Below, piece after piece: positions 12,026 through 59,879 of a stretch of DNA of 64,000 nucleotides; positions within the stretch are counted from its first letter, which is position 1, and the number at the start of each line of letters is the position of its first letter. The notes below the pieces were generated by a model. That model did no database searches and was not told the origin of the DNA. It was given only the letters and a program-made list of their open reading frames with translations. Source of the DNA: Acidimicrobiia bacterium (GTDB lineage: Bacteria; Actinomycetota; Acidimicrobiia; Spongiisociales; SHLN01); assembly GCA_041567895.1 (NCBI GenBank), contig JBFGAX010000001.1:1578-65577 (forward strand), in the 5' to 3' direction. The position numbers were made by a program, and so were the translations under genes.

Positions 12026-12067
12026 GAATGGAGGGGCTTAGGGGGTACCTTGCGCGCAGGAGTAAGT

Positions 12068-43781: not shown

Positions 43782-45464
43782 CTAGATATGACGATTGACG
43801 GCGTTCATCACAGCTCGTAGCGACGCAGTTGTGATGTCGGAATGCAAACCGACACCCCAGACCTCTTCATCGTCAACCCGCATCTCCAGGTACGTGACCG
43901 CCTCGGCATCTCTGCCCGTGCCCATCGCATGTTCGTGATAGTCCATCACCCGCAGCGATATACCCAAGCGATCCTCAACGGCGGCAACGAATGCGTCCAC
44001 GGCACCGTTGCCTTCGCCGACAATCGTCCACTGTTCTCCGGATTCCTCTATGAGGGCTTCCACCGTTGTCCGGTCGTTTCCGCGAGCATTGTGCGAGCTG
44101 GTGTGCCGGATCAAGCGGTATTTGGCGTCGGGAGGGTTGACATACGTGCTACGGAATTCGGTCCATATCTCGTTCGGTTGGATCTCTCTTCCGGTTTCAT
44201 CCGTGATCGATTGGATGACACGCATGAAATCAATCTGCAGCCGCCTTGGCAGCTCCATCTTCTGCTCTGTCTTCAACACGTACGCCACACCGCCCTTGCC
44301 AGACTGGCTGTTGACGCGAATCACGTCCTCGTACGATCGACCGAGATCTGCCGGGTCAAGTGGCAGGTACGGCACGTCCCACAGCGCCTCACCTCCGACA
44401 GCCGCATCCTCCTTCTCCTGGGCCTCGAATCCCTTCTTTATCGCATCCTGATGCGATCCCGAGAATGCGGTATAGACCAGATCACCCACGTACGGATGAC
44501 GAGGATGGACCGGCAATTGATTGCAGTGTTCGGCCACCCTGCGTATCTCATTGATGTCGCTGAGGTCCAGGCCGGGATCGACCCCCTGGGTGAAGAGATT
44601 GAGAGCAAGGGTCACGACATCGACGTTTCCGGTTCGTTCGCCGTTTCCGAACAGCGTGCCTTCAACCCGGTCGGCGCCTGCCATCACTCCGAACTCGGCT
44701 GCGGCGACCGCCGTCCCCCGATCGTTGTGCGGGTGCACACTCAGGACAATCGCCTCACGCCGATCGAGATTCGTGTGCATCCATTCGATCATGTCGCCAA
44801 AGAGGTTGGCCGTCGACATCTCAACTGTCGCCGGAAGGTTGATGATCACCTTGTCCGACGGTGTCGGCTCGAAGACATCCATGACCGCCTCACACACCTC
44901 TTTTGCGAACGGCAGTTCGGTACCCGTGAAACTCTCCGGCGAGTATTCGTATCGAATGCGGGTGTCGCCCATCGCGGCTTCGAACTCCTTGCAGTGTTCA
45001 GCGCCCTTCACCGCGATATCGACGATTCCGGCCTCGTCCAACCCGAAGACGACCCGTCGCTGCGTTGTCGACGTCGAGTTGTAGAGATGCATGATCCCCT
45101 CACGGGCTCCGACGAGGCTTTCGTATGACCGTTCGATGAGATCGCGCCGCGCCTGCGTCAACACCTGGATCGTTACATCGTCCGGGATGAGATCCTCTTC
45201 GATGATGAGGCGCACGAAATCAAAATCCGTCGCCGAAGCGGCAGGAAATCCAACTTCGATCTCCTTGAAGCCCAACGCGACGAGTGTCTGGAACATCATG
45301 AGCTTCCGCTCCGAGTCCATCGGATCGATGAGCGCCTGATTGCCGTCTCGTAGATCAACACTGCACCAGATTGGTGACGTGGTGATGCGGGTATCGGGCC
45401 AGGTTCGATTACCCAGCTCGACGGAGGGGAAGGGTCTGTATTTGTGGACAGGCATGCGGTTCAT
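43782..45464 (-). CDS. leuA: 2-isopropylmalate synthase (long, mycobacterial-type LeuA)
   Basis: 560 aa; HxH TIM-barrel catalytic domain ([10 protein letters not shown]...) plus a C-terminal regulatory domain. Confidence 0.9.
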
Positions 45465-45594
45465 CGGTGAACTCCCGGGAATTGCGACGTGACGTGTGAG
45501 CGGGTTCCGGCAGCGTTAGCGCGCCGGGCGCGTAAGTCGAAGAACCGACTTGTTGCGTGGAGAGTCGTCGTGCGTCGTCACAATGCGATTGAGC

Positions 45595-46623
45595 CTATTG
45601 GACGGCTGCCCCGGCCGCAACCATCGCAGCCGTGATCAACGCCGGGTCGACATGCATGACAACGGGGTCGCCGAATGCTCTCAAGAGCACCATTCGCAGT
45701 CCCCCGGCGTCCCGTTTCTTATCGAGAACAACCAGTTCCTCGAGATCATCTAGAGCAAGGTCTGGAATCCGGGTGGGAAGATTTTGGGCAGCAAGCAAGG
45801 TTTTCTGACGCGCGCTGCCATCAAAGCCGAGAAGCTCACGCGAAATGTCGGCCGCTACCGTCATGCCGATAGACACTGCGTCGCCGTGTGGCAGGCTGCC
45901 CGCGATCTCCACTGCGTGTCCAACCGTATGTCCGTAGTTGAGGATTGCGCGGCGGCCCGACTCTTTCCAATCGTCGCTCACAATATCGGCCTTGACACGC
46001 ACGGCTTCCAACACCACTTCATCGAGATCGACCAGTGGGCCCTCGATTTCGTAAAGATCAAGAATGCGGTCGCTGCCGATGCATCCGGCCTTGATGACTT
46101 CTGCGTGTCCCTGCCGGGCAATCGCTGAAGGGAGCTCGGCCAGCAGCAGGGTATCAATCACAACCCGCGACGGGTGCGAAAAGACCCCAACGAGGTTCTT
46201 GCCGTCGACGTTGACTCCGGTTTTGCCTCCGATCGCCGCGTCCACTGCTCCGAGCAATGTGGTCGGAACATAGACCGCCTCAATGCCACGCAGATACGTA
46301 CCGGCCACGAACCCGGCCAGATCGGTTGCGGCCCCGCCGCCGACGCCCACCACGGTGTCGGCGCGGCTCATCCCGATGCTGTTCAGCCAGCGAAACACCG
46401 CGCCGGCCGTCTCGAGACTCTTTGCCGCCTCTCCATCCGGTAGTTCAAAAAGGTCAGCCCGAGGTAGCCGATCGAGAAGTGCTTGGGCCACCTCCTCTGG
46501 CTTTCCCGGTTGGTGAAGAACCGCAACACGATGCCGATCCCGGTCGTTGACGATCGGGTCCGTCTCGATCGTCCCTTTCCCGATAACGATCTCGCAGTCG
46601 GAAATGTGTATCCGGTGTGACAT
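45595..46623 (-). CDS. aroB: 3-dehydroquinate synthase
   Basis: The track ORF starts inside aroC. The probable start is MSHRIHISDCEIVIGKG (ATG 46623, 4 nt after the aroC stop). Glycine-rich NAD loop VVGVGGGAATDLAGF is present. Confidence 0.85.
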   Translation of the reverse strand: MSHRIHISDCEIVIGKGTIETDPIVNDRDRHRVAVLHQPGKPEEVAQALLDRLPRADLFELPDGEAAKSLETAGAVFRWLNSIGMSRADTVVGVGGGAATDLAGFVAGTYLRGIEAVYVPTTLLGAVDAAIGGKTGVNVDGKNLVGVFSHPSRVVIDTLLLAELPSAIARQGHAEVIKAGCIGSDRILDLYEIEGPLVDLDEVVLEAVRVKADIVSDDWKESGRRAILNYGHTVGHAVEIAGSLPHGDAVSIGMTVAADISRELLGFDGSARQKTLLAAQNLPTRIPDLALDDLEELVVLDKKRDAGGLRMVLLRAFGDPVVMHVDPALITAAMVAAGAAVQ

Positions 46624-46627
46624 GGGA

Positions 46628-47779
46628 TCAGAAGGTAGCGATGCGCTTGCGATATGCCTCGACTGCCCCGACGAAATCCGAAATCGTGTCTCCCCCAAAC
46701 TTGCGTTGCATCTCCTGGGCAAGCACGATCGCCACCATTGATTCTGCGACTACTCCGGCCGCAGGCACTGCGCAGACATCCGAGCGTTCCCGAATGGCCG
46801 ATTTCTCATCCTTCGTCTCGACATCGACGGTTTTGAGTGCCTTCATCAACGTGGAGATCGGCTTCATTGCAGCCCGCACCCGCACCACCTGGCCGTTTGT
46901 CATGCCTCCCTCGATGCCTCCCGCCCTATCCGTACCCCGGACAAACTCTCCTTCGGCGTACGCGATCTCATCATGGGCGACCGATCCCCTTCTCCTCGCC
47001 GATTCGAAACCGTCCCCTACCTCGACTCCCTTGATCGCCTGAATGGACATCAGCCCCATCGCCAGCAGAGCGTCCAGTTTCCGGTCGTAGTGGACGTGAC
47101 TTCCAACCCCAACTGGCACCCCATATGCCAACACTTCGACGACGCCACCGAGGGTATCACGATCGGCTTTGGCCGCTTCGATGGCTGCGACCATGGCTGA
47201 TTCCGAGGCCGGGTCAGCAGACCGAACGGGAGAGGCGTCGATGGTGGAGAGATCATCGGGTGTCGGCATGGGACCGGTCGCTTCCGCTTCACCGATAGCA
47301 ACCACGTGCGAAAACACCTCTACGCCTACCTGATGCAATAGTTGCTTGGCCAGATAGCCGGCGACGGCCCTGGCAGCAGTTTCCCTGGCGGAGGCTCGTT
47401 CGAGAATGTCGCGAGCATCGTGCGTGTCATATTTTTGCATTCCCGCCAGATCGGCATGTCCCGGGCGGGGAGCTGTAGCGGGACGGGCGCTGGTCCCGGA
47501 TTCGGGATTCATCTCTTCCGTCCACTTGGTCGCGAATTCGGTATTTCGTACCAGTACCGAAACCGGGGATCCGAGCGTCATCCCAAAACGAAGACCGCCC
47601 AGGAACTCGATCTCGTCCTGTTCCAACTGCATACGCCGACCTCGCCCATAGCCGAGGCGCCGCCGGGCCAACTCGGCGGCAAGCCCTTCGCGACTCACGG
47701 GCAGACCAGACGGAAGACCTTCAACGATGGTGGTCAGGCCGGGCCCGTGCGATTCTCCAGCGGTCAACAAGCGCATCAT
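46628..47779 (-). CDS. aroC: Chorismate synthase
   Basis: 383 aa; MRLLTAGESHGPGL is the canonical N-terminus. Confidence 0.9.
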   Translation of the reverse strand: MMRLLTAGESHGPGLTTIVEGLPSGLPVSREGLAAELARRRLGYGRGRRMQLEQDEIEFLGGLRFGMTLGSPVSVLVRNTEFATKWTEEMNPESGTSARPATAPRPGHADLAGMQKYDTHDARDILERASARETAARAVAGYLAKQLLHQVGVEVFSHVVAIGEAEATGPMPTPDDLSTIDASPVRSADPASESAMVAAIEAAKADRDTLGGVVEVLAYGVPVGVGSHVHYDRKLDALLAMGLMSIQAIKGVEVGDGFESARRRGSVAHDEIAYAEGEFVRGTDRAGGIEGGMTNGQVVRVRAAMKPISTLMKALKTVDVETKDEKSAIRERSDVCAVPAAGVVAESMVAIVLAQEMQRKFGGDTISDFVGAVEAYRKRIATF

Positions 47780-47829
47780 ATTCGTCGAGATGGTAGCTGT
47801 CGCCGCAATGAGCTCTCGGCCAACCGCCG

Positions 47830-48342
47830 CTACTTCAGAATCTGTTGTCCCTCACCCAAAACGAACGTCGAGTCACCAAAGAGGAACGTGACCTTGTCGT
47901 CGTCCAGGGCGACAATCTTGTACCGACCGGCAAATGTTTCGCCGACGCCAACGGTGTACTCGGTGCCATCGACCCGAACGATTGCCCTTCGATTCCCAGC
48001 GGCATCGGTGGTTATAGCCACGACTGTCACATTACTTCCGGCGAGTGGATCATCGGATCCGGTGACGTCGGGGGCACCGACAATGAGGGGTCGAAACGGA
48101 TCGCGGGGTTGGGCAGCCTGGAAAGCCTCCACCACACGTGAGCCGCGCAACAAACTGTCCGTGGAGCCGACGCCCGCAACCACGCCGGCGTCGGTGGCTG
48201 ACGGCAGCACGACGTTCTGCGGAGCATCGAGCGTCGTGCGCGAGGCGCCGAAGACGCCAGGCGCCACCAGCAGCCAGCTGATCGACACCAGCGCAGCCAG
48301 CAGCAAAATCGTCGTGATGAGTGTCGAGCTTCGCTTGACCAT
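47830..48342 (-). CDS. PilP-like type IV pilus assembly protein (N-terminal TM anchor, no lipobox)
   Basis: 170 aa; N-terminal TM helix, RDPFRP motif, then a beta-rich domain (AIVRVDGTEYTVGVGETFAGRYKIVALDDDKVTFLFGDSTFVL) resembling the PilP C-domain. It lies immediately downstream of pilM/N/O. Confidence 0.55.
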   Translation of the reverse strand: MVKRSSTLITTILLLAALVSISWLLVAPGVFGASRTTLDAPQNVVLPSATDAGVVAGVGSTDSLLRGSRVVEAFQAAQPRDPFRPLIVGAPDVTGSDDPLAGSNVTVVAITTDAAGNRRAIVRVDGTEYTVGVGETFAGRYKIVALDDDKVTFLFGDSTFVLGEGQQILK

Positions 48343-48923
48343 CAGTTCACCGCCTCCTCTAGTTCCAGGGTTCCCGGCAGTGGATTGGTTGAGAAGGCCC
48401 TTGCCGTCAAATTGGTCTGGAGAATGTTTGTCGACGTCTCTTCATCGAGATTGGCCGAGATCGAAAGCTGATCGACACGGATCAGCCTGTCGAGATCCTC
48501 CAAATCGAACAGGAATTGCAGCGTCCTGAAGTACTCGCCCTCGATCCCGAGATTGAGCGCGATTTCGTAGAGGTCCTCACTCAGCGTCGAACTGGCAGGC
48601 GGTATGGCCGAAAGCTGGGTAATAGTGAGCCCCGAGTCCCTCGCCAGAGCCCGGATGGACTCGAGCAATGCGGCCTCACTTGGATCCTCCGGGATCGAGA
48701 CAGAAATCTCAGCCACGGCGGCGTCGAACTGACCCTGCTGTCGCTGCAGCTCCAACAATCTCGTGATGCGAGCCTCGAGGGTCTCTTGCTCTTGCACTGC
48801 CGTCTGTAGATCAGCCTCGACATCATCAATAGTGGCAGTCGATCCCCGCCAAAACAAGAAAAACCAAAGAGCCAAAATGACCAATCCCACAAGCACCGCT
48901 ATCAACACATTCCGTCGGTTCAT
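48342..48923 (-). CDS. pilO: Type IV pilus assembly protein PilO-like
   Basis: 193 aa; N-terminal TM, coiled-coil (LQTAVQEQETLEARITRLLELQRQQ) and a C-terminal alpha/beta domain. Start overlaps the pilN stop. Confidence 0.65.
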   Translation of the reverse strand: MNRRNVLIAVLVGLVILALWFFLFWRGSTATIDDVEADLQTAVQEQETLEARITRLLELQRQQGQFDAAVAEISVSIPEDPSEAALLESIRALARDSGLTITQLSAIPPASSTLSEDLYEIALNLGIEGEYFRTLQFLFDLEDLDRLIRVDQLSISANLDEETSTNILQTNLTARAFSTNPLPGTLELEEAVN

Positions 48924-49519
48924 GAGATCTCCGGAATTCTGGATGCGATTCTGGTGCTGGCCGCTCCTTCAGTGAGTTGTGCCGTCGACTGATAGCTGAC
49001 GACCTCAACCCCACTGACGTCAGCAGCGGTGACCGAAGTCACCCAGGTAGAACCGAGTCCGGCGTAATTGGTGTTGTCGACCGAGCGCAGCCAGTTGGCT
49101 ACGTCCTCGTATTCGAACGCCGTACCCGAGACCGATATCTGCTCTTCATTTCCCGTCAGCGTGTTGAGCCACACGCGGTCCGGAATGAATCGGCCGAGAT
49201 CATTGAGCAGGCGAGCCCACGAGACATCTCCAGCAAGAGCTGCAGCCACGAGCTCGGTTCTGGCCTCGAAATTCTGGAGAGGAATTTCGAATTGGCCGAG
49301 AGAATCGATTTCGGCCTGTCTCGCTGCATTTGCTTGTTGCTGGGCAACGAGATCGTCTTCGAGGTCCCGGATGGTTGAGAGGCGCCCGAGTGTCAGAAAT
49401 GCAAGCAAGACGACCAGCAGCACCAGACCCGCCAGCAAAACGACGCGGTTGCGACGAGACGCCTCCTCTTCGAAGATCTCGCCAGGAAGGAGGTTTATAT
49501 CTCTCATTCGGGGCTCCAC
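48920..49519 (-). CDS. pilN: Type IV pilus assembly protein PilN
   Basis: 199 aa; INLLP motif (DINLLPGE) followed by a TM segment and periplasmic domain. Confidence 0.75.
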   Translation of the reverse strand: MEPRMRDINLLPGEIFEEEASRRNRVVLLAGLVLLVVLLAFLTLGRLSTIRDLEDDLVAQQQANAARQAEIDSLGQFEIPLQNFEARTELVAAALAGDVSWARLLNDLGRFIPDRVWLNTLTGNEEQISVSGTAFEYEDVANWLRSVDNTNYAGLGSTWVTSVTAADVSGVEVVSYQSTAQLTEGAASTRIASRIPEIS

Positions 49520-50565
49520 AGGGCCAGGCCGACCGGGACCGGGAGCACAGGCTGCAGAGGGGATACGACTTCATCGGACAGTTTGCCGGTGCTGAGGTGA
49601 CTGAGAACGCGAGCGGGTTCTACCGGTGCATCGAGCGCACGCCCGAGTCGATTGGCCAGGTGAGGCAGGCGGGCGCCGTTACCGGCCACAATCACCTTGC
49701 TCACCGAACCACCATCGCCCTGGCTCAGGAAGAAGTTGACGGATCCGCGAATCTCTTCAATGAACCTGCCGGCCTCTGCGGTCAAGAGTGACTGGGCCAC
49801 TTCGTCTTCGGTCTCGTCCCCGGATGCTGCGGCCGCGTCGTCATCCACCGAAATCCCGATCCGACGTTTGAGCTGCTCGGCGGCTTGGAATTCGAGATTC
49901 AAACCCTCAACGAGCGTCTCTGTGAACGCCGAACCACCGGTTTGAATGATGCGAACAAAACGTGGGGTCAATCCACTGACGAGCACGACCTGCGTGATGT
50001 CGGCCCCGATATCGACCAACACGGCAATACCGCTTACCGGCTGAGGAACCAGGGACCGGACGAGGGCAAAAGCTTGGAGATCGACAGCGATGACATTGAG
50101 TCCTGCAGAGGTGGTGACATCGAGGAAATCCTGAACCATCGATCGATGAGCGGCAACGGCGAGGATGGCCTGCATCGGTTCGCCCTCTGGCGTTGTGAAC
50201 TCGTCGATGCCAACGTGGTCGAGGATTGCCTCCTCGACTGACATTGGCATGTACTCCTGAACTTGAAACGGGAGGGCATCTCTCAACTCCGCTTCACCCA
50301 TCAGAGGAACATCGACCTGACGAACCACGACTCGCTGATTGGCGATGCCGATAACCACCCTCTTCTTGGGCAATCGATGCTTGCGCCAGAGCTCCTTGAT
50401 GGCGTCGACGATCGCAGCCCCGTCGATGATCTCGCCTGCGGCAACTGCACCTTCTGGCAACAGCACCTCACCGACCTTGCGAAGGACGGGCTGTGACTTT
50501 CCGGCGTCAATGGCCACAGCGCGAACGCTGCTGGAACCTATATCCAGGCCAACGTTGACTGCCAT
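49504..50565 (-). CDS. pilM: Type IV pilus assembly ATPase-like actin-fold protein PilM
   Basis: 353 aa; MAVNVGLDIGSSSVRAV (FtsA/actin-like phosphate-1 motif) with PilM-family architecture. Confidence 0.85.
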   Translation of the reverse strand: MAVNVGLDIGSSSVRAVAIDAGKSQPVLRKVGEVLLPEGAVAAGEIIDGAAIVDAIKELWRKHRLPKKRVVIGIANQRVVVRQVDVPLMGEAELRDALPFQVQEYMPMSVEEAILDHVGIDEFTTPEGEPMQAILAVAAHRSMVQDFLDVTTSAGLNVIAVDLQAFALVRSLVPQPVSGIAVLVDIGADITQVVLVSGLTPRFVRIIQTGGSAFTETLVEGLNLEFQAAEQLKRRIGISVDDDAAAASGDETEDEVAQSLLTAEAGRFIEEIRGSVNFFLSQGDGGSVSKVIVAGNGARLPHLANRLGRALDAPVEPARVLSHLSTGKLSDEVVSPLQPVLPVPVGLALWSPE

Positions 50566-50650
50566 CTACTCTCCGCCTCTTCATCTCGTGATGTATCCGG
50601 ATGCCCAGCGCGGGCGTTCCGGTTACTGCTTTGGTCTGTCTTGCTCGAGT

Positions 50651-50680
50651 GCTTGTTCGTGCTTGTTCGTGCTTGTTCGG
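50651..50680. repeat. 3x tandem 10-bp repeat (gcttgttcgt) ~85-115 nt upstream of the pilM start
   Basis: gcttgttcgt gcttgttcgt gcttgttcgg, preceded by a degenerate copy (cttgctcgagt). One-helical-turn phasing. Confidence 0.6.
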
Positions 50681-50872
50681 GTTCTGCTGCCGCTCGATCT
50701 TCGGTCGTACATCCACGAACGTGTTGTAATTACGCACGTGTCATTTACTCGGCGAAAGCATAGCGATGAGGGGTATGGCCCGCGGTCTTTGGGCGGGACC
50801 GCGAAAACTTCCCTAAACGGCGCGGTTACGCCGTTATCGGGGAACCCGGTCGTAGTCGCATGTGGGCAAGGT

Positions 50873-51646
50873 TCATAGCCCGAGATACCACGATGCGATG
50901 GAGTCTCCCCAGAGAGCACCCAGCCAAGCTGCCGCCATCATGGCCGGACCGAATGGCATTTTGGCTTTCCGTCCACGTTTCGTGAACACCATGATCGCAA
51001 CTCCGGCCAATCCCCCGATCAAGAATGCGAGAAAGACACCAACGACCAGCTCCGACCATCCCGAATAGGCCATCACAAATCCGAGCAAAAAGGCCAGTTT
51101 GACATCGCCGAAGCCGAATCCCCCCGGGGTGATCATGAACAGAACGAAGAAAAGTACGAGGTAGGCGAAGCCGCCTGCGAACGCACCAGGCAGTTGGTCG
51201 GTCTGTCCCTCGAGAACGCTGCCACCGATGAACAGTGCAATCGTCAACCCGGTGCCGGTGAACACGATGCGATCGGGCAGACGCTTGTGATCGAGATCAG
51301 TGAGTATCAAGGCAATCGTGGTGCCCGCAAAGAACAGATACCCGGCCAACAAGGCATTGGGGCCGACCCACCAGGCAACGAGACCAAAGCTGACGGCCGT
51401 CGCCACTTCCACCACGGCGTACCGTCCGGAAACCGGATTCCCGCAATCACGGCATTTGCCGCCGAGACGCAGCCAGCCGATAACCGGGATATTGTCCGAC
51501 GAACGAATCGGGGCATCACAAACCGGACAAGCCGAACCCGGGGTAACTACCGATTTGCCCAACGGCACCCGATAGGCAACCACATTCAAGAACGATCCGA
51601 TAACGAGCCCAACCAGACCTGAAAACGCGATCAGCAGCTCATGCAT
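50873..51646 (-). CDS. pilD: Prepilin peptidase (A24 family, PilD)
   Basis: 257 aa; N-terminal zinc-binding CPVCDAP...CRDCGNP tetracysteine. Catalytic Asp context is present (DLDHKRLPD; GFGFGDVKL). Confidence 0.9.
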   Translation of the reverse strand: MHELLIAFSGLVGLVIGSFLNVVAYRVPLGKSVVTPGSACPVCDAPIRSSDNIPVIGWLRLGGKCRDCGNPVSGRYAVVEVATAVSFGLVAWWVGPNALLAGYLFFAGTTIALILTDLDHKRLPDRIVFTGTGLTIALFIGGSVLEGQTDQLPGAFAGGFAYLVLFFVLFMITPGGFGFGDVKLAFLLGFVMAYSGWSELVVGVFLAFLIGGLAGVAIMVFTKRGRKAKMPFGPAMMAAAWLGALWGDSIASWYLGL

Positions 51647-51655
51647 GCTCTATTG

Positions 51656-52147
51656 CTACCAGCCGGAGGCGGCCCACACCGGAGAAGGTGGAACCAGCGA
51701 GGGACAGGAACCACCGAAAAGCCCGGAGGCGGTAGACGCCTTACCGAACGCGGTAGCGTCCTGGACCGCATCCCAGATCCCGAACCAGGTTCCCGATTGG
51801 CTTTGCACAACCACGCAAACCGTGTCGCTTCCGTTGACGGCGACTCCGACCTGTCCGACTCCCGGTGTCAGCGATGCCACAAAGGCCAGGCTCGGTTCGA
51901 CTTCCTGTAGCACGGTCACATCGTCGGTATACGCGATCGTGGCTGCCATCACGCTCTTTTCGGCGACCAGGCCATGGCGTAGCGCAGTCTGAGCAGCTCG
52001 ATCCTGGGCAGTGGTCCGCTGACCGAGGAATGTCGGAACTGCGATAGAAACCAGGATCGCTACGATCAAAACAACCACCATCAGCTCTATCAAGCTGAAA
52101 CCGGCCTCACTGTCTCTCCTGAACATGAGACAGTATCGACGCCTCAC
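51656..52147 (-). CDS. pilA: Type IV pilin (class III signal peptide), copy 1
   Basis: ...EAG|FSLIELMVVVLIVAILVSIAVPTF has the prepilin cleavage site G/F and Glu+5, with a C-terminal Cys pair. The start is either GTG 52147 or ATG 52126. Confidence 0.85.
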   Translation of the reverse strand: MRRRYCLMFRRDSEAGFSLIELMVVVLIVAILVSIAVPTFLGQRTTAQDRAAQTALRHGLVAEKSVMAATIAYTDDVTVLQEVEPSLAFVASLTPGVGQVGVAVNGSDTVCVVVQSQSGTWFGIWDAVQDATAFGKASTASGLFGGSCPSLVPPSPVWAASGW

Positions 52148-52180
52148 AAACCGGCCTTGAAAGATTCCCCGCAGCCCACA

Positions 52181-52214
52181 TCAAAAAGAGCGGGACCCAG
52201 TCGGGTCCCGCTCT
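52181..52214 (-). terminator. Strong intrinsic terminator between the two pilin genes
   Basis: Perfect 12-bp stem agagcgggaccc/gggtcccgctct with loop agtc, followed by UUUUU on the minus-strand transcript. It sits 40 nt downstream of the pilin copy-2 stop. Confidence 0.65.
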
Positions 52215-52254
52215 AGATGAAGCCTCGTGAGAGGCTTTACCAACTAGTCAGCTG

Positions 52255-52707
52255 CTACCAGCCGGCGCCAGCAGAGCAAGCTGCTTCATCCGCCGGAGTT
52301 GCGGCACCGGAGCCGTAAACGGTTGCCTGCTGTGGATGCTCATAGATCCAGAAGAAGGTTCCGCTGGCGGACTCGGACACCAGGCACACGGCACCTGTTG
52401 CAGCGTAAAGCGTCGGCAACACACCACTGTCGGCGGCGTCGTCAACTGTCCAGTCGAGGCTTGGCTCGATGGCGCTGAGATCCGCGGCTGTGGCCGTGTA
52501 GGCCTGATCATTCGCGTAGATGGTTTTTTCCGTGGCCAGGGCGTTGCGCAGGTTCGACTGAGCAGCGCGGTCCTGGGCCGTCTCACGTTGACCGAGGAAG
52601 GTCGGGATCGCGATAGCGACCAGGATGGCGATGATAAGCACCACGACCATAAGCTCGATCAGTGTGAAACCGTCTTCGTTCAGACGATTGCGCATCCGAT
52701 TCAACAT
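52255..52707 (-). CDS. pilA: Type IV pilin (class III signal peptide), copy 2 (probable major pilin)
   Basis: True start ATG 52707 (GGAGG 10 nt upstream): MLNRMRNRLNEDG|FTLIELMVVVLIIAILVAIAIPTF, with a C-terminal Cys pair. The track ORF extends further 5'. Confidence 0.85.
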   Translation of the reverse strand: MLNRMRNRLNEDGFTLIELMVVVLIIAILVAIAIPTFLGQRETAQDRAAQSNLRNALATEKTIYANDQAYTATAADLSAIEPSLDWTVDDAADSGVLPTLYAATGAVCLVSESASGTFFWIYEHPQQATVYGSGAATPADEAACSAGAGW

Positions 52708-52977
52708 GTTGTATTGCCTCCTATGACAATGAATCCGGGACGCAATGCGCGCCCCATGTACAACAGCTGTATCGGCGCCCCTCCCAGCTTCCTTGAGGGT
52801 GATCGACCAATTTCCCAAACGAACTAGTCCCCCGGGTATGCACCCTGAATGCGCTGCAAAAAGGCGCAGTCATCGCTTGGAGACAATCCGGGCCAACCGT
52901 GGGCTCGTCACAGTTCACATTCAACGTGCAGGCCGAGCGAAGGTTCGTTCGCTTTCGGTCGAGAGGGGGTTTGAGGG

Positions 52978-53036
52978 GCATGCGCAGTATTAATGAGGTG
53001 GCATGCGCAGTGTCAATGAGGTGGCATGCGCAGAGG
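52978..53036. repeat. Three direct 23-bp repeats (GCATGCGCAG-T(A/G)T(T/C)AATGAGGTG) between pilC and the pilin gene
   Basis: Copies are at 52978-53000 and 53001-53023. The third, at 53024, is interrupted by a 20-bp palindromic insert (agggcttcgagccct) before its GTCAATG half. The whole array is flanked by the inverted repeat tgaggggc/gcccctca. Confidence 0.6.
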
Positions 53037-53132
53037 GCTTCGAGCCCCTCAGCGTCAATGTAGATGGCGAACCCCCACGGACAACATCAACGAGAAACCA
53101 ACAAGCGTTTAGCCGCCGACAATCAACGCGCA

Positions 53133-54359
53133 TTACCCGATGACATTGACCAGGTTGAACATCGGTAAGTAGAGGGCCACGAGGATGGCGCCGACTGTTG
53201 CACCCATGAACGCGATGAGGATCGGCTCGAGGAGGCTGGTGAGAGCGTCTACGGTGTCGTTGACTTCACGGTCGTAAAAGTCGGAGACCTTGTCGAGCAT
53301 GTTGTCGAGGGCGCCGGTCTCTTCGCCGACCGCCATCATCTGCACGACCATGGGCGGAAAGATTTTTCCCTCTTTGGCCAGCGGCTGGGAGATTGAATCT
53401 CCACCCTTGACGGCCTGTGCGACCCGGTTGACTGCGTCTCCGACCACTACGTTTCCAGCTGTCAACTCGACGATGGTCATGGCTTCCAGAATCGGAACGC
53501 CGGAACGGACGAGCACGCCGAGGGTTCTGGCGAATCGGCTGATCGCGGTTTTGTGGTTCATGGTGCCGAACACGGGCGCTCGCAATTTGAACGCATCCCA
53601 CATACGACGTCCGCCCGTGGTGTTGATCCAGCGCCTGAACGCGTAGACCGAGGCACCAAACGCGGGGAAGATGATGTACCACTTTGAGGTGAGAACGCCC
53701 GAGGCTCCGATCAGGGCTCTCGTCGCGATTGGAAGTTCGCCTCCAACATCCGCGTACATATCAACGAACTGGGGGACGACGAAGAGAAGCATCAGGGTTA
53801 CAACACCCGCCACCATGCTGAGTACCACGATCGGGTATGCCATGGCCGACTTGATCTTGCTGCGCAGCGCCGCTGCGGATTCGAGCGTATCTGCGATACG
53901 TTCGAGGGTCTCGTCCAGTACACCTGCTGCTTCACCGGCTTGCACCATCGCGACAAATAGCGTGTTGAAGACTTTGGGATGCTGCTCGAGTGCAACGCTG
54001 AGGCTTGCACCTCGCTCCACGCTGGCTCGTACCTCGCCAATCGTCTTCTTGAGGGGCTTGGAAACGGTCTGTTCTTCGAGAACATAGAGAGATCTCAGGA
54101 GCGACAGACCGGAATTGATCATGGTCGCAAACTGGCGGCTGAAGATGGCAATCTCTTTGGCTTTTATCCGGTCGGTTATGCCCGGGATCGAGATCTCTTT
54201 CTGGAGACCGTCGGTCTTCTTCTCGGCGACGCCGAGCGGTGTCATCCCGCTTTCCTTCAGAGCGCGGATGACCGCTTCTTTGGAGGAGCCCTCCAACTCC
54301 CCTTCGATGACTTTGCCGCTCTTGGCGTCACGAACCTTGTACGTGTACATCGAGGCCAT
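53133..54359 (-). CDS. pilC: Type IV pilus inner-membrane platform protein PilC (GspF family)
   Basis: 408 aa with two GspF repeats and 3 TM segments. Confidence 0.9.
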   Translation of the reverse strand: MASMYTYKVRDAKSGKVIEGELEGSSKEAVIRALKESGMTPLGVAEKKTDGLQKEISIPGITDRIKAKEIAIFSRQFATMINSGLSLLRSLYVLEEQTVSKPLKKTIGEVRASVERGASLSVALEQHPKVFNTLFVAMVQAGEAAGVLDETLERIADTLESAAALRSKIKSAMAYPIVVLSMVAGVVTLMLLFVVPQFVDMYADVGGELPIATRALIGASGVLTSKWYIIFPAFGASVYAFRRWINTTGGRRMWDAFKLRAPVFGTMNHKTAISRFARTLGVLVRSGVPILEAMTIVELTAGNVVVGDAVNRVAQAVKGGDSISQPLAKEGKIFPPMVVQMMAVGEETGALDNMLDKVSDFYDREVNDTVDALTSLLEPILIAFMGATVGAILVALYLPMFNLVNVIG

Positions 54360-54362
54360 GAT

Positions 54363-55901
54363 TTAGCCGCCCTGTAGGAGGCGTTGCATTGCCTCTTTGT
54401 CGTTGCATCGTTCCATGGCGAGTTCTCGAGTGATCTTGCCCTGTTTGGTCATTGCTGCAAGCGCCATGTCCATCGTCTGCATTCCGTATTTGCCACCGGC
54501 CTGAATCGCGCTGGGAATCTGGTGGACCTTGCCATCGCGCACGAGGTTTCTAATAGCCGATGTCGCGATCATGACCTCGACTGCTGCGATCCGGCCCTTG
54601 CCGTCAACGGTCGGGAGTAACTGTTGAGACAGAACGGCCTGCAGCGATCCTGCCAACATCACCCGAACCTGAGATTGCTGGTGGGCCGGAAATACATCGA
54701 TGATTCGCTCGATGGATTGAGGCGCACTCTGGGTATGCAGGGTTCCGAATACGAGGTGTCCGGTTTCGGCTGCAGTTAGCGCAGCACCGATGGTTTCGAG
54801 ATCTCGCATCTCACCCACCAGGATCACGTCAGGATCCTGCCGCAAAATGTGCTTGAGCGCCTGATTGAATCCGAGCGTGTCGGTTCCGACTTCTCGTTGA
54901 TTCACAATGCTCTTCTTGTGCCGGTGCAAGAACTCGATCGGATCCTCAACCGTGATGATGTGACTCGCCCGCTCAGTGTTGATGAGGTTGATGATCGACG
55001 CCAACGAGGTTGACTTACCTGAACCGGTCGGGCCGGTCACGAGTACGAGACCACGATGCAGATGCGCAAGCGAGTTGACGGCCGCAGGCATGCCGAGCTC
55101 GTCGGGGTTCTTGATCTCATTCGGAATGGAACGAAGAACTGCCGCTACCGAATCACGCTGGAAGAACACGTTTACACGAAACCGTCCTCGTCCAGGGAGC
55201 GGATGAGACGTGTCCAGTTCACGAGTTTCTTCGAACCGGGTTCGCTGCTCAGCCGTGAGAATGTCGTACAAGATTCGGCGAAGCTCGGCCGGCATCAGAA
55301 TATCGAACCCCTCCATGGGCTCGAGCGATCCGTGGACGCGCACCATGGGCGGTGAACCGGCCGTCAGATGAAGATCGGAACCTTGCTTTTCAATCAACAA
55401 CTCGAGGAAGTCGTTGAGATGAACCTGTTCGGAAACTTCTGTCGGTACGCGACGCGGCTCCTCATCGAGGCCCATGAAAAATGAATTGAGCATCTCGTCG
55501 ATGCCGGTCTGGCTGGCAAGCGCCATCGTCACGGCTGAGCCACACACCGTCTCGAGGCTGGTCTGAATGTCGCGGATGAACGGATTGGCGACCGCCACAA
55601 TCACACGGCCGTCTTCAACCTTGATCGGTATGGCATTGAAGCGGTGTGCAGTATCGGGATCGAGCCTGGACACTGCCTCGGGCTGCAGCACTTCGTTCTG
55701 TACGTCGACATACCTCATGCCTATCCGGTCGGCGACCGTAGCAAGCAGATCCCCCGGTGAGACGTGGCCGTTTTGCAGAAGGATTCGCGCGAGGGGAACA
55801 TCCGTGTCCTTCTCCTGTACGTACAGGGCTTCGAGTACATCACGGCTGAGCAGCCTCTTATCGACGAGTGACTCGCCGATTTGTTTGGATACCCGGTTCA
55901 C
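54363..55901 (-). CDS. pilT: PilT-type retraction ATPase carrying an N-terminal T2SSE_N/MshEN-like domain
   Basis: The C-terminal ~360 aa is a PilT core: Walker A GPTGSGKST, HIITVEDPIEF, GHLVFGTLHT, and the signature AIRNLVRDGKVHQ, with no tetracysteine. The N-terminal ~150 aa parallels the PilB N-domain (IGESLVDKRLLSRDVLEALYVQ...PLARILLQNGHVSPGDLLATVADRIG...IPIKVEDGRVIVAVANPF). Confidence 0.85.
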   Translation of the reverse strand: MNRVSKQIGESLVDKRLLSRDVLEALYVQEKDTDVPLARILLQNGHVSPGDLLATVADRIGMRYVDVQNEVLQPEAVSRLDPDTAHRFNAIPIKVEDGRVIVAVANPFIRDIQTSLETVCGSAVTMALASQTGIDEMLNSFFMGLDEEPRRVPTEVSEQVHLNDFLELLIEKQGSDLHLTAGSPPMVRVHGSLEPMEGFDILMPAELRRILYDILTAEQRTRFEETRELDTSHPLPGRGRFRVNVFFQRDSVAAVLRSIPNEIKNPDELGMPAAVNSLAHLHRGLVLVTGPTGSGKSTSLASIINLINTERASHIITVEDPIEFLHRHKKSIVNQREVGTDTLGFNQALKHILRQDPDVILVGEMRDLETIGAALTAAETGHLVFGTLHTQSAPQSIERIIDVFPAHQQSQVRVMLAGSLQAVLSQQLLPTVDGKGRIAAVEVMIATSAIRNLVRDGKVHQIPSAIQAGGKYGMQTMDMALAAMTKQGKITRELAMERCNDKEAMQRLLQGG

Positions 55902-57580
55902 GCCACGACCCTCATGATCTCTTCGATGGATGTCCTGCCCTGGCGGACCTTGGTCATTCCGTCATCCCACAGTTCGAGCATGCCTTGTTCTTTGGCGACG
56001 ACTTTGATCTCGTTCGAAGGTCGGTTCTCGACGGCCATACGCCGAATCTCGTCGGATATCAGCATGACCTCGTGTAATGCCAACCGCCCGCGATATCCAT
56101 TTGAACAAGCACCACACCCCTTCGGATCAGCGGCGTAAATCTGTGAGGCGCTGACCTTCTCGATTTCCTCGTCGGACCAACGAGCTTTCACAAGCATGTC
56201 CTTGTCGGGAGAAAACTCGACTTTGCACTTCTTGCACAAACGTCTGGCGAGACGTTGGCCCAACACTGCGTCGAGCGACGAAGAAACCAGATACGGTTCG
56301 ACGCCCATCTCGATGAGGCGTCCGATGCTCGATGGCGCATCGTTTGTGTGCAACGTTGAAAGCACGAGGTGACCGGTCAGGGCGGCCTCGATCGCGATTT
56401 GTGCTGTTTCGTGGTCGCGAATCTCACCAACAAGGGCAATGTCAGGGTCGGACCGCAGGATGGATCGCAAAGCCGTGGCAAACGTCAAGCCAGCCTTCTT
56501 GTTGACCTGAACTTGCGTTATCCCTTCCAGCCGATACTCAACCGGATCCTCAGTGGTGATGATGTTGACCTCCGGCCTGTTCAACACGTTGAGCGTTGCG
56601 TACAGGGTCGTCGATTTACCGGAACCGGTTGGGCCGGTTACGAGAATGGCGCCGTAGGGCTTGGTGTAGGCCGATTCAAATCGGGCGAGTGTTTGGGGTA
56701 GGAAACCGAGATCCACCAGTTCCAAGAGCACCGAGGATCGATCGAGAATACGCAGCACGACTTTCTCACCGAACACCGACGGCAATGTGGCAACGCGCAA
56801 GTCGACGGGTTTGCCGTTCATCTTGAGAGACATACGGCCGTCTTGCGGCACCCGTCGCTCGGCGATGTTGATGTCTGCCATGATCTTGAGACGACTCACG
56901 AGGGCGTTCGAAATCGCCTTGGGGGTCGACATGACTTCATGCAGAACACCGTCGACCCGGAAACGAACGCGCAGGTCCTTTTCGCCCGGTTCGATATGAA
57001 TATCGGAGGCGCCTTCGTTCACAGCCCGGGTCACGATCGTGTTGACGAGTTTGACGACCGGTGCCTCATCCACTGCCTCTTTGAGAGCGGAGAGGTCTTC
57101 CTTCTCTTCTTCCTCTCCAAAGTCGGCGAACTCGGTGACCGAATCGTTATACGACGACATTCGTGCAATCGCAGCCTCGACCGCACTGCGGGGAGCGACC
57201 CGGGGAACGATCTCCATACCGGAAATCGACCTGATGTCGTCCATGGCGAGCACGTTGGCCGGGTCAGCCATCGCAACAATGAGCTTGTCTCCGTCGAATA
57301 GCACAGGCAAGGCCGCATACCGCTTGGCGATGTTGTCCGGAATCAGAGCCGCCGCGGTGGGATCGACCGTGATTTCTTCGAGAGCGATGTATTCGATGCC
57401 AATTTGCTTGGCGAGCACTTTCACGAGATCGGTTTCGTCGACGAACTCCTGATCGACCAGGATGCGCGTGAGCGACTTGCCGCTTTCACTCTGTATTTGC
57501 TGCGCTTCGTCGAGCTGCTCTTTCGTGAGCACGCCCTCTTGCACAAGCATCGAGCCGAAATGACGCGATTCGGTTCTCAA
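55898..57580 (-). CDS. pilB: Type IV pilus assembly (extension) ATPase PilB
   Basis: 560 aa with an N-terminal MshEN-type motif (HFGSMLVQEGVLTKEQLDEAQQIQ), Walker A GPTGSGKST, and a tetracysteine CKKC...CGAC. TTG start with AGGAG 5 nt upstream. Confidence 0.9.
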   Translation of the reverse strand: MRTESRHFGSMLVQEGVLTKEQLDEAQQIQSESGKSLTRILVDQEFVDETDLVKVLAKQIGIEYIALEEITVDPTAAALIPDNIAKRYAALPVLFDGDKLIVAMADPANVLAMDDIRSISGMEIVPRVAPRSAVEAAIARMSSYNDSVTEFADFGEEEEKEDLSALKEAVDEAPVVKLVNTIVTRAVNEGASDIHIEPGEKDLRVRFRVDGVLHEVMSTPKAISNALVSRLKIMADINIAERRVPQDGRMSLKMNGKPVDLRVATLPSVFGEKVVLRILDRSSVLLELVDLGFLPQTLARFESAYTKPYGAILVTGPTGSGKSTTLYATLNVLNRPEVNIITTEDPVEYRLEGITQVQVNKKAGLTFATALRSILRSDPDIALVGEIRDHETAQIAIEAALTGHLVLSTLHTNDAPSSIGRLIEMGVEPYLVSSSLDAVLGQRLARRLCKKCKVEFSPDKDMLVKARWSDEEIEKVSASQIYAADPKGCGACSNGYRGRLALHEVMLISDEIRRMAVENRPSNEIKVVAKEQGMLELWDDGMTKVRQGRTSIEEIMRVVA

Positions 57581-57640
57581 CCTGTCTCCTTAACTGTGTC
57601 GCCATTATTTCGGCCCACGCAGTTGAGGTCTTGAGCGTGT

Positions 57641-58417
57641 TTACAAACCGGCTGCGATTCTCATCTCGTGGCGCGGGGCTGGCAGACCGGTCCACCATTC
57701 GAAGCTGAGCGCAGCTTGCTCGACGAGCATGTCGATTCCGGAAACGACCGGTATCCCGCCCTCCGTGGCCAGGCTGACCGCAGGAGTTGGTTGGTCGGCA
57801 TAGGCCATGTCGAAGAGCCCCGTGGCACCAGCCGACATCGGCGTCGGGAGCTCCTCGGCAGCCATTCCGAGAGGAGTGGCGTTGACGAGCACACCTGCAA
57901 ACGGATCGCCCCAATCCAAAACGGTACCGGTCACCCCGACCGATTTCAGAACTGCTGTGGCAGCCCCCTGGCGTCTGGCCGAGACACTGATCCGACCCGT
58001 CGTGATCGAAGCCACAGCGACCAACGCCGCCGCTGCCGCGCCACCGCCTCCCAGGATGAGCACATCACCCGTGGGTAGCTCGGCACTTCTCCAGCACGCG
58101 CGTATAGCCGGGATGTCGGTGCTGATGCCCATGACTCTCTCGCCACGAACCATCATCGCGTTTACAGACCGGGCAATGGCCGCATCGGCGGAAACCACAT
58201 CGGACGACGTATACGCCAGGCCCTTGTGCGGCATGGTCACGTTCACGCCCGTCAACCTTCCACTCGCAATCTCCGAGACAGCAGATGTGAACTGCACAGC
58301 ATCCACCTCCCGCGCCTCGTAGGCGCCCTGAACTCCGTGATAGGCCAGAGCTGTCTGATGCATGGCCGGAGATCGGGAGTGGCCAACCGGGTTGCCCAGC
58401 AGAGCCAGGCGCATCAT
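57641..58417 (-). CDS. aroE: Shikimate dehydrogenase
   Basis: The track ORF is over-extended. The probable start is MMRLALLGNPVGHSRSP (ATG 58417, overlapping the mltG stop, TGATG). A GGGGAAAA NADP loop is present. Confidence 0.8.
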   Translation of the reverse strand: MMRLALLGNPVGHSRSPAMHQTALAYHGVQGAYEAREVDAVQFTSAVSEIASGRLTGVNVTMPHKGLAYTSSDVVSADAAIARSVNAMMVRGERVMGISTDIPAIRACWRSAELPTGDVLILGGGGAAAAALVAVASITTGRISVSARRQGAATAVLKSVGVTGTVLDWGDPFAGVLVNATPLGMAAEELPTPMSAGATGLFDMAYADQPTPAVSLATEGGIPVVSGIDMLVEQAALSFEWWTGLPAPRHEMRIAAGL

Positions 58418-59478
58418 CAGAAGACGCCTTCGGCGCGGGCCTTTGCCACCTTTTCGTTGTGCTCCTCGAGCGTCACGCTGAAACCATGACTGCCGTCGGG
58501 GTCGACCAGCACATAGTAAAAGAAGGGTGTGTCTTCGGGATCTCCGGCGGCGATGAGCGACCGCAAACCTGGAGCGGCAATCGGCGTTGGCGGGAGTCCG
58601 GCTCGAACGTAGCTGTTGTAGGGAGACGAAGATTGCTTGTCGGCGTTCGTGGGAACTCCTCGCTCGCCCCGCCCGTACACCAGCATGGCATCGATCTGAA
58701 GCAAGATGCCCTCTCGAAGACGGTTGTAAACGACACTGCTGATGATCGGCCGATCGGGATCGAGTTTCGCCTCGGCTTCGATGATGGATGCGATGATGAG
58801 TGTCTCGTACTCGGTAACTCCGAGTTCTTCCATTCGGTTCCACTCGGCCGCCTCGACCCTGAGCTGCATTTCGGTGGCCATCTTTTGCAGAACTGTTGCG
58901 GGCGATGCATCCTCAAAAAACTCGTAGTTGGCCGGAAACAACAATCCTTCCCAATCTGCCAGGTTGCCCGGCGTTCCCGGAAACAGCGGCGAAACTACGC
59001 TGCCATCGAGCAGAGCCGTTGCGTACGCGTCGACCGAGTGAGGAGATTGTTCCGACAGGGATTGAAGGATTTCACTCACCCATAGCCCCTCCCTGATCTT
59101 GACGGTATACACGTCCTTCAACTCCGGACCCTGACGGAGAATCTCAACCGCAGCTTCGGATCCCATTCCGGTGGTCAGCTCGTAGGTACCGGCCTGCAGC
59201 GAAAAGCCGAGGCCGTTGGCCTTCACATACGACTCGAATTGGCTGGCGCGCTCTACGACACCTGCCTCCGCGAGCACGTTGCCGATGTCTTCGGCACTCG
59301 ATCCAGATTCGATGTCGACGATCACCGACTGGCCGGCAACGATCGTGGTGGCGGGTCCGCCTCCAAACGACTCGGCGAGCCGGGTAGCGCCCCATGCCAC
59401 GATGGCGAGTGCGAGGAGGCCGATCATGATCCCGAGCCATACCGGAAAGCCCCCCGAGGGTTTGTCGTACTCGATCAT
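58417..59478 (-). CDS. mltG: Endolytic murein transglycosylase MltG (YceG family)
   Basis: 353 aa with an N-terminal TM segment and a YceG-like domain. Confidence 0.85.
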   Translation of the reverse strand: MIEYDKPSGGFPVWLGIMIGLLALAIVAWGATRLAESFGGGPATTIVAGQSVIVDIESGSSAEDIGNVLAEAGVVERASQFESYVKANGLGFSLQAGTYELTTGMGSEAAVEILRQGPELKDVYTVKIREGLWVSEILQSLSEQSPHSVDAYATALLDGSVVSPLFPGTPGNLADWEGLLFPANYEFFEDASPATVLQKMATEMQLRVEAAEWNRMEELGVTEYETLIIASIIEAEAKLDPDRPIISSVVYNRLREGILLQIDAMLVYGRGERGVPTNADKQSSSPYNSYVRAGLPPTPIAAPGLRSLIAAGDPEDTPFFYYVLVDPDGSHGFSVTLEEHNEKVAKARAEGVF

Positions 59479-59879
59479 TGTCTATCCAGGTAGCTCTGGA
59501 GGATCAGTGCCGCGGCCACGCCATCGAGCGTTTTGCGACGTTCGGATCGCCTGGTGCCGCTCTCGATCATGGACCTTTCCGCCAACACGCTCGTAAACCG
59601 CTCGTCCTCAACTTCGACGTCCAGTCCGGTGGCGCCCGCGACCTCTGACGCGAACGCGCGGGCCGCTTCTGCCGATGGACCATCTTCTCCACTCAGTGAG
59701 GTGGGCATTCCTATAACGATAGATTCCACGTCATGGGCACGTACGGCACCGGCGATCACGTCGATTGCTGTAGCTCGATCACAAACCATGAGCGGAGAAG
59801 CTATCAGATGTGACGGGTCTGAGAGTGCAATACCAACTCGCTTTGTGCCGTAATCGATTCCCATCAATCGTCCCATCAC
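59475..59879 (-). CDS. ruvX: Holliday-junction resolvase-like putative pre-16S rRNA nuclease RuvX/YqgF
   Basis: 134 aa; LMGIDYGTKRVGIALSD is the canonical N-terminus. Confidence 0.85.
   Translation of the reverse strand: MMGRLMGIDYGTKRVGIALSDPSHLIASPLMVCDRATAIDVIAGAVRAHDVESIVIGMPTSLSGEDGPSAEAARAFASEVAGATGLDVEVEDERFTSVLAERSMIESGTRRSERRKTLDGVAAALILQSYLDRQ

Follow-up and report, generated by a model that had tools for sequence, protein, structure and literature searches.

Here we describe a gene, designated X, which occupies positions 47830..48342 on the minus strand of a 64-kb stretch of DNA (64,000 nucleotides, hereafter the window) from an Acidimicrobiia bacterium, and which stands last in a type IVa pilus cluster encoded entirely on that strand. 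We propose that its product corresponds, in actinobacteria, to PilP, which in Gram-negative bacteria joins the pilus machine to its pore in the outer membrane, and that it serves the type IVa pilus as a fourth subunit of the PilM-PilN-PilO alignment complex; we put the probability of this reading at roughly 0.6. A sequence-only reading of the window had already called X a PilP homologue, and this view is supported by the fold of the protein, by a short motif, by profile matches and by the position of the gene.

When the structure model of X was compared with the PDB by Foldseek, the top matches were all HR-domain proteins, with probabilities of 0.99-1.00. The best was the HR domain of GspC (3oss_C; TM-score 0.78, normalised to the target; root-mean-square deviation 2.1 A), and others in the same probability range were GspB (4wfw, the second-best), Pseudomonas aeruginosa PilP (2lc4), the HR domain of PulC (6hcg_e) and LspC (7oio); unrelated folds ranked below the HR proteins, at low probability. 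A lack of structural likeness to the HR domains of PilP and GspC had been named beforehand as what would overturn the idea of a PilP homologue, and the likeness was found. As judged from the predicted model, the outcome is specific for a domain of ~65 residues. We also observed that 7muc_AF ranks eighth among the fold matches and that one X relative weakly matches the IcmG/DotF NCBIfam model; there are hints that an HR-like sandwich is common to more envelope-spanning machines.

The relationship seems to extend to the sequence. TIGR03021 (pilP_fam) matches 31 of 136 X-family members at E<=0.05 (alignment A2; best E 5.5e-8), GspC_delta matches eight of them (best E 6e-6) and the Pfam PilP model PF04351 matches two (best E 0.0031). 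Among ten relatives scanned singly against TIGR03021, the best was P0191 (39% identical to X), which reached 31.7 bits, against a cut-off of 34.65, over a span including both motif and domain. In a profile-profile comparison (hhalign), the X family aligned with bona fide PilP across the HR core at E 3.8e-4, and the narrower profile A1 placed the RDPF of X on the RSPF of Pseudomonas PilP. The motif of the latter reads LRSPFQPP, with R-x-P-F conserved, that of Myxococcus xanthus PilP reads KRDPFRSP and likewise lies ahead of the HR domain, and across the PilP alignment the motif proline is invariant, with the arginine and the phenylalanine nearly so. Given the significant matches of relatives, the profile-profile comparison and the common motif, X is, on sequence grounds, related to PilP by homology at the superfamily level and not by shape alone. 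That the resemblance is convergent, X being a small, unrelated membrane protein with a beta sandwich whose gene adjoins pilO by chance, is hardly credible beside these matches.

The anatomy of X is modular. The N-terminal membrane anchor (~residues 5-28; 48259..48330; all coordinates given for X and the pil cluster refer to the minus strand) is preceded by K3 and R4 and comprises a hydrophobic stretch of ~23 residues, which peaks in the 19-residue segment starting at residue 8 (mean Kyte-Doolittle 2.5) and which AlphaFold2 models as a helix at residues 5-26 with a confidence (pLDDT) of up to 96. X has no cysteine at all and hence no lipobox, so that a lipoprotein is ruled out. There follows a variable, presumably extracytoplasmic arm (residues 29-74; 48121..48258; pLDDT 44-61), weakly conserved in alignment A1, which leads to the motif Q-x-x-Q-P-R-D-P-F-R-P-L-(I) at residues 75-87 (48082..48120), our proposed PilN/PilO docking element. 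This segment, QAAQPRDPFRPLI in X, is invariant in all 32 homologues of alignment A1, and RDPFRP forms residues 80-85 within the invariant block Q..QPRDPFRPL. A flexible linker rich in Gly, Pro and Asp (residues 88-102; 48037..48081; pLDDT <50 at residues 92-95) carries insertions and deletions in alignments A1 and A5, and its length differs widely within the family. The C-terminal HR-type beta-sandwich domain (residues 103-170; 47833..48036) is modelled as a 68-residue domain of seven strands with a pLDDT of 87-94, and it ends in a near-invariant GQQILK, which forms the extreme C-terminus of the protein, directly ahead of the stop codon at 47830-47832. The sequence-only reading had described just such a protein, with a transmembrane anchor in place of a lipobox, an RDPF motif and a C-terminal sequence resembling a beta sandwich, encoded behind pilMNO, and each of these features was recovered here; the genes directly upstream give Pfam matches for pilM, pilN and pilO.

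At the junction with pilO (48340..48359), the two genes overlap in the sequence TGATG, in which the A of the pilO stop codon is the A of the X start codon at 48342, and a GAGGAGG ribosome-binding site (48353-48359) lies 10 nucleotides upstream of the X start. Together, the overlap and this site indicate coupled translation, and since the start of X overlaps the stop of pilO, the protein is probably produced together with PilO. A 395-residue open reading frame on the opposite strand (47342-48529, plus strand) runs antisense to X and to part of pilO; because it is the X frame that is conserved at the protein level, the antisense frame is most likely an artefact of the high G+C content. We regard X as a genuine gene on account of its 32 close homologues, the 1129 clusters of related sequences described below and its fixed position in ~135 loci.

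When 1.84 billion cluster representatives were searched with a profile, 1129 clusters were retrieved at E<=1e-3, 410 of them at E<=1e-10, and a scan of one genome per species yielded 80 loci, nearly all labelled as metagenome-assembled genomes of Acidimicrobiia or Actinomycetota; the window gene itself is 99% identical to that of the Acidimicrobiia isolate Site_A38. In these 80 loci the order pilB-T-C-A-A-D-M-N-O-X-aroC is maintained as far as the contigs extend, and pilM-pilN-pilO-X recurs in ~135 loci overall, with aroC behind it where the contig runs far enough. The same arrangement is found in all 50 metagenome loci of the family branch that contains cysteines, in the low-G+C loci L083-L085 (pilM-pilN-pilO-X-aroC), in the low-G+C locus L087 (again with aroC) and in the soil-metagenome locus L086, in which one extra gene precedes aroC. 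Locus L087 encodes P0194, which resembles P0199, a protein assigned by NCBI to Candidatus Oleimmundimicrobium of the class Candidatus Aquicultoria; the link of this locus to the Aquicultoria rests on that resemblance, the gene context having been read at L087. In most loci aroC directly follows X, with one intervening gene in a few (e.g. L086 and L092). Since all four distant groups checked had pilM-pilN-pilO-X, the pilMNO module has X as its constant fourth gene in lineages that diverge widely and have the actinobacterial gene order in common, and X is not peculiar to a single genome. One of the homologues bears the automatic Joint Genome Institute label 'PilP'. Locus L006 (CAXMQV010000139.1), labelled 'uncultured Gammaproteobacteria bacterium', holds a complete aroE-pil-X-aroC locus of the actinobacterial kind with an X 50% identical to the window protein, and its contig is probably mis-binned.

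Conservation within the family follows the anatomy outlined above. An N-terminal hydrophobic segment and an [RK][DNSE]PF motif are each present in 164 of 168 members and a C-terminal lysine in 166, P82 and F83 do not vary among 136 phylum-wide sequences, and a credible lipobox occurs in only ~2 of the 168. This pattern, as far as sequences can tell, places the motif and the HR domain under strong conservation and X under clear purifying selection. Two cysteines fall within the last 45 residues in 104 of the 168 members (consensus ...C..F.FGD..F.LCEGEEILK); they are invariant in the HR domain of the larger branch (alignments A4 and A5), whereas they are missing from the Acidimicrobiia branch, to which the window protein belongs. 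Such a pair would agree with a disulfide and with a position outside the cytoplasm, and in the branch that carries it a disulfide is probably formed. The long relatives include no natural PilO-X fusion and consist of proteins with tandem HR repeats or with N-terminal low-complexity extensions: P0061, P0069 and P0033 have two or three tandem HR domains behind a single transmembrane helix and RDPF motif, and P0195 has an extension of ~180 residues, which is presumably cytoplasmic.

Comparison with the known HR-domain families shows where X agrees with and departs from each. The PilP of type IVa pili (PF04351; P. aeruginosa 2lc4/2y4x, Neisseria meningitidis 2ivw/4av2, M. xanthus 3jc8) is likewise encoded directly after pilO, is of similar size (~175 residues, compared with the 170 of X) and has the same layout of a membrane anchor, a disordered arm with R-[DS]-P-F and a C-terminal HR beta sandwich. 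It is, however, anchored as a lipoprotein, whereas X has a transmembrane helix in place of the lipobox cysteine, and X has no adjoining pilQ, does not reach the PF04351 threshold, resides in an actinobacterial host presumed to be monoderm and has a more compact domain with a conserved ...ILK C-terminus. GspC (3oss_C, 6hcg_e; PF11356; NF041515) shares the transmembrane anchor and the HR domain but belongs to the secretin-dependent type II secretion system and continues into a PDZ or coiled-coil region, whereas X ends with its HR domain and scores under the GspC cut-off. GspB and its relatives OutB and ExeB (PF16537; 4wfw) have the same order of transmembrane helix, linker and C-terminal HR domain as X; GspB binds the secretin N0 domain and acts with GspA or a pilotin, and it contacts peptidoglycan with a C-terminal extension, which has no equivalent in X. 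Finally, the PilP of R64-type type IVb systems (TIGR03021) gives the best sequence-model match of the X family, and the alignment of P0191 to it spans motif and domain, but these are plasmid-borne proteobacterial systems with a secretin, and both X and P0191 score below the cut-off. X thus resembles PilP in position, layout and motif, and GspC and GspB in its transmembrane anchor and compact HR domain. Because it misses the PilP sequence cut-offs, the lipoprotein anchor of PilP and the extra domain of GspC, it is filed in none of these families, and the sequence comparisons place it in a new branch of the HR-domain superfamily that no existing model captures.

This raises the question of the secretin. 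If X were a conventional adaptor of the PilP/GspC type, its secretin would be encoded elsewhere and would cross an outer membrane, or another outer layer, of the host. The ten long open reading frames scanned outside the pil locus of the window include no secretin, nor do the genes listed or scanned in the related loci L001, L083-L087 and L092, in a search that was not genome-wide and took in 64 kb of this genome and, for each related locus, 20 kb at most. The absence of pilQ from the window, as first read from the sequence, was thereby confirmed among the long frames scanned; these frames encode housekeeping proteins (tRNA synthetases, a class A penicillin-binding protein with a PASTA domain, a histidine kinase, PriA, RibBA, an acyl-CoA ligase and others). 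Moreover, X travels with the actinobacterial housekeeping block mltG-aroE ... aroC-aroB-efp-nusB across the Acidimicrobiia, the Aquicultoria-related branch and the soil lineage, and class A penicillin-binding proteins with a PASTA domain, such as the one in the window, are typical of Gram-positive lineages. Likewise, monoderm type IVa pili, those of Actinobacteria included, have been described as having lost the secretin (PMC6668835), and in a KEGG-based survey of the Acidimicrobiia order UBA5794, pilABCEMOTY1 are recorded and both pilP and pilQ are missing from the list (PMC12008989). All this speaks against a secretin encoded elsewhere, in favor of which it can be said that every characterised HR domain docks on a secretin N0 domain (PMC9239104; PMC4471445), that the inspected stretches were short and that the named carriers are all uncultured; on balance, we consider a conventional adaptor very unlikely.

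How, then, could X work? Its N-terminal helix would anchor it in the cytoplasmic membrane in place of a lipid anchor, with the remainder of the protein outside the cell. In P. aeruginosa, it is PilP's N-terminal part (~residues 18-76) that binds PilNO heterodimers (PMC5805733), and X possesses a comparable arm (pLDDT 44-61) with its invariant motif of the R-x-P-F type; by analogy, RDPF may dock on the heterodimer of the PilN and PilO ectodomains and stabilise it. The linker would then place the HR domain more distally, level with the cell wall. There, with no secretin N0 domain to bind, the HR domains could conceivably ring the growing pilus as a collar or, alternatively, contact the wall, the peptidoglycan, or a wall-associated or other partner. 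Most simply, X, working without a secretin, might be the part that was retained when an ancestral machine lost PilQ.

A variant of this scheme would have X act more like GspB/OutB, as a scaffold to peptidoglycan or an opener of a path through the wall, with binding to PilN and PilO secondary or absent. The shared layout, the rank of GspB as second-best structural match, the finding that Pfam T2SSB (PF16537) is the commonest Pfam match in the family (17 of the 136 members; best 1.2e-4) and the contact of OutB with peptidoglycan (PMC9239104) all point in this direction. The variable linkers and the tandem HR domains of P0061, P0069 and P0033 are also what one would expect of a wall-spanning spacer; they hint at a spacer extending into a wall that differs in thickness, and in this respect they fit a PilP counterpart as well. 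However, OutB touches the wall with a C-terminal extension and not with its HR domain (PMC9239104), whereas X ends at the HR domain; RDPF, the most conserved element of X, is common to PilP, where it falls within the PilNO-binding region (PMC5805733); and the X gene occupies the place of pilP, directly after pilO. We therefore regard a GspB-like role as unlikely, and prefer the PilP counterpart.

Several observations nevertheless weigh against the identification of X as a PilP counterpart. X itself scores only 16.6 bits against TIGR03021 (cut-off 34.65; E 0.012; residues 99-153) and 11.6 bits against Pfam T2SSC (PF11356; cut-off 27), Pfam PilP PF04351 does not match it at E<=1, and the hhalign probability between the X family and PilP is 36%. 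A search of the PDB sequences with profiles A1 and A2 produced nothing significant and in part low-complexity matches; M. xanthus PilP appeared at E 1.2. The N-terminal segment may be cleaved as a signal peptide between VFG and AS instead of serving as an anchor. All named carriers are uncultured metagenome-assembled genomes, the monoderm envelope of the host is presumed from taxonomy, and the absence of a secretin elsewhere in the carrier genomes, although likely, is extrapolated from the limited scan of the window and loci. Last, since every HR domain studied to date binds N0 (PMC9239104), a secretin-free role would be without precedent. Other candidate relationships were set aside. The best PDB-sequence match of the profiles, FliL (E 0.022), is insignificant and aligned over the transmembrane and Pro-rich part; weak Pfam matches of X to Cyd_oper_YbgE, the TTHA0829-like ACT domain and DUF6406 fall under the cut-offs, extend over the transmembrane helix or a few strands and are not seen across the family; and matches of 18 of the 136 members to GltJ probably stem from Pro/Gly-rich linkers.

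Upstream of X, the cluster comprises pilO (48342..48923; PF04350, 5.8e-13), pilN (48920..49519; PF05137, 6e-12), pilM (49504..50565; PF11104, 2.5e-35; TIGR01175, 1.5e-54), the prepilin peptidase gene pilD (50873..51646; PF06750, 1e-30; PF01478, 7.2e-13) and two type IV pilin genes, recognised by PF07963 and a motif scan, of which pilin 2 (51656..52147) has a leader ending in SEAG ahead of FSLIELMVV and pilin 1 (52255..52818) one ending in NEDG ahead of FTLIELMVV; the real start of pilin 1 is probably an internal ATG near 52710. These names rest on Pfam/NCBIfam matches well over cut-off. The open reading frames of the platform protein gene pilC (53133..54359), a pilT-like ATPase gene (54363..55901) and the extension ATPase gene pilB (55898..57580) were named by their matches to genes of the related locus L001 that carry T2SSF (PF00482; by tblastn), T2SSE (PF00437), and PF05157 with PF00437, respectively. 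The two pilin genes are the only ones with class III (prepilin) signals in the window (51656-52818), both adjoining pilD, and a motif scan for such signals detected no minor-pilin set within the 64 kb; in the low-G+C relatives L083 and L087, unlike the window, the region upstream of pilM holds several N_methyl genes along with large ones that lack annotation.

The whole cluster sits between aroE and aroC (45595-59478) within the conserved actinobacterial block mltG-aroE ... aroC-aroB-efp-nusB. It is flanked by aroE/mltG on one side and aroC/aroB on the other, with efp, nusB and pyr genes, named from the window translations and the Pfam-annotated relative L001, farther out; a large open reading frame at 59876-62494 is putatively alaS, going by the usual actinobacterial gene order. 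This position is identical in the Acidimicrobiia, in the low-G+C loci related to the Candidatus Aquicultoria protein and in the soil lineage, which suggests that the pil cluster is an old, vertically inherited insertion. No cultured carrier of X was found among 8000 candidates scored with alignment A2, and the names given to carriers were soil metagenome, 'Actinomycetota bacterium' and Candidatus Oleimmundimicrobium.

Some peculiarities of these loci deserve mention in their own right. The soil branch encodes cyclic-di-GMP enzymes (GGDEF-EAL, EAL-HDOD and GAF-GGDEF) within or beside the pil locus (L092, 3253-5181; L086, 3910-5145 and 8986-10449), and the gene between X and aroC in L092 (8694-9851) encodes 385 unannotated residues and has no Pfam match. 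In the window (43782-46722), the gap between aroC and aroB has no shikimate kinase gene, which is present in L001 and L083-L087, and a LeuA-like open reading frame recognised by eye (43782-45464) lies between aroB and efp, at the site that aroQ/pepQ occupy in relatives. The listed aroB frame begins at TTG and overlaps aroC by 95 nucleotides, an internal ATG probably being the real start. The class A penicillin-binding protein mentioned above, with its C-terminal PASTA domain, is encoded at 11717-14461 (plus strand); the listed start overlaps an opposite-strand histidine-kinase frame (10724-12025), and the real start is probably downstream.

Reviews state that both PilP and PilQ are absent from Gram-positive bacteria (PMC4471445, PMC6916266) and call the absence of PilP logical because there is no secretin there; from this absence it is argued that PilP merely links to the secretin and, in one of the reviews, that it has no role in assembling the filament. 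In Neisseria, on the other hand, PilP belongs to the eight proteins that assembly requires, according to genetic and synthetic-biology work (PMC10191384). The literature we consulted on PilP in Gram-positive or actinobacterial pili contained only statements of absence and described no PilP-like component, and X should be moderately surprising to the specialist. A further possibility, which we hold to be less likely than not, is that the HR subunit belongs to the core of the type IVa pilus machine independently of any secretin and is, in Actinomycetota, a relic of an ancestral outer-membrane-spanning machine. It would stabilise PilN/PilO and, by way of its outward-held HR domain, tandemly repeated in some members, form or dock onto a passage for the pilus through the thick wall. 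If true, this would undo the reasoning that PilP has no assembly role since Gram-positives lack it, and the relic would mark a diderm-to-monoderm transition in Actinomycetota.

Taken together, X would add a fourth alignment-complex subunit to the annotation of actinobacterial pili, where it is currently labelled hypothetical. It offers a natural system for the study of secretin-independent HR-domain function, in which such a role of PilP is directly testable, and it prompts one to ask which partner an HR domain takes where no N0 domain is available. More broadly, it could inform our ideas on how envelope-spanning machines are trimmed after the outer membrane has been lost.
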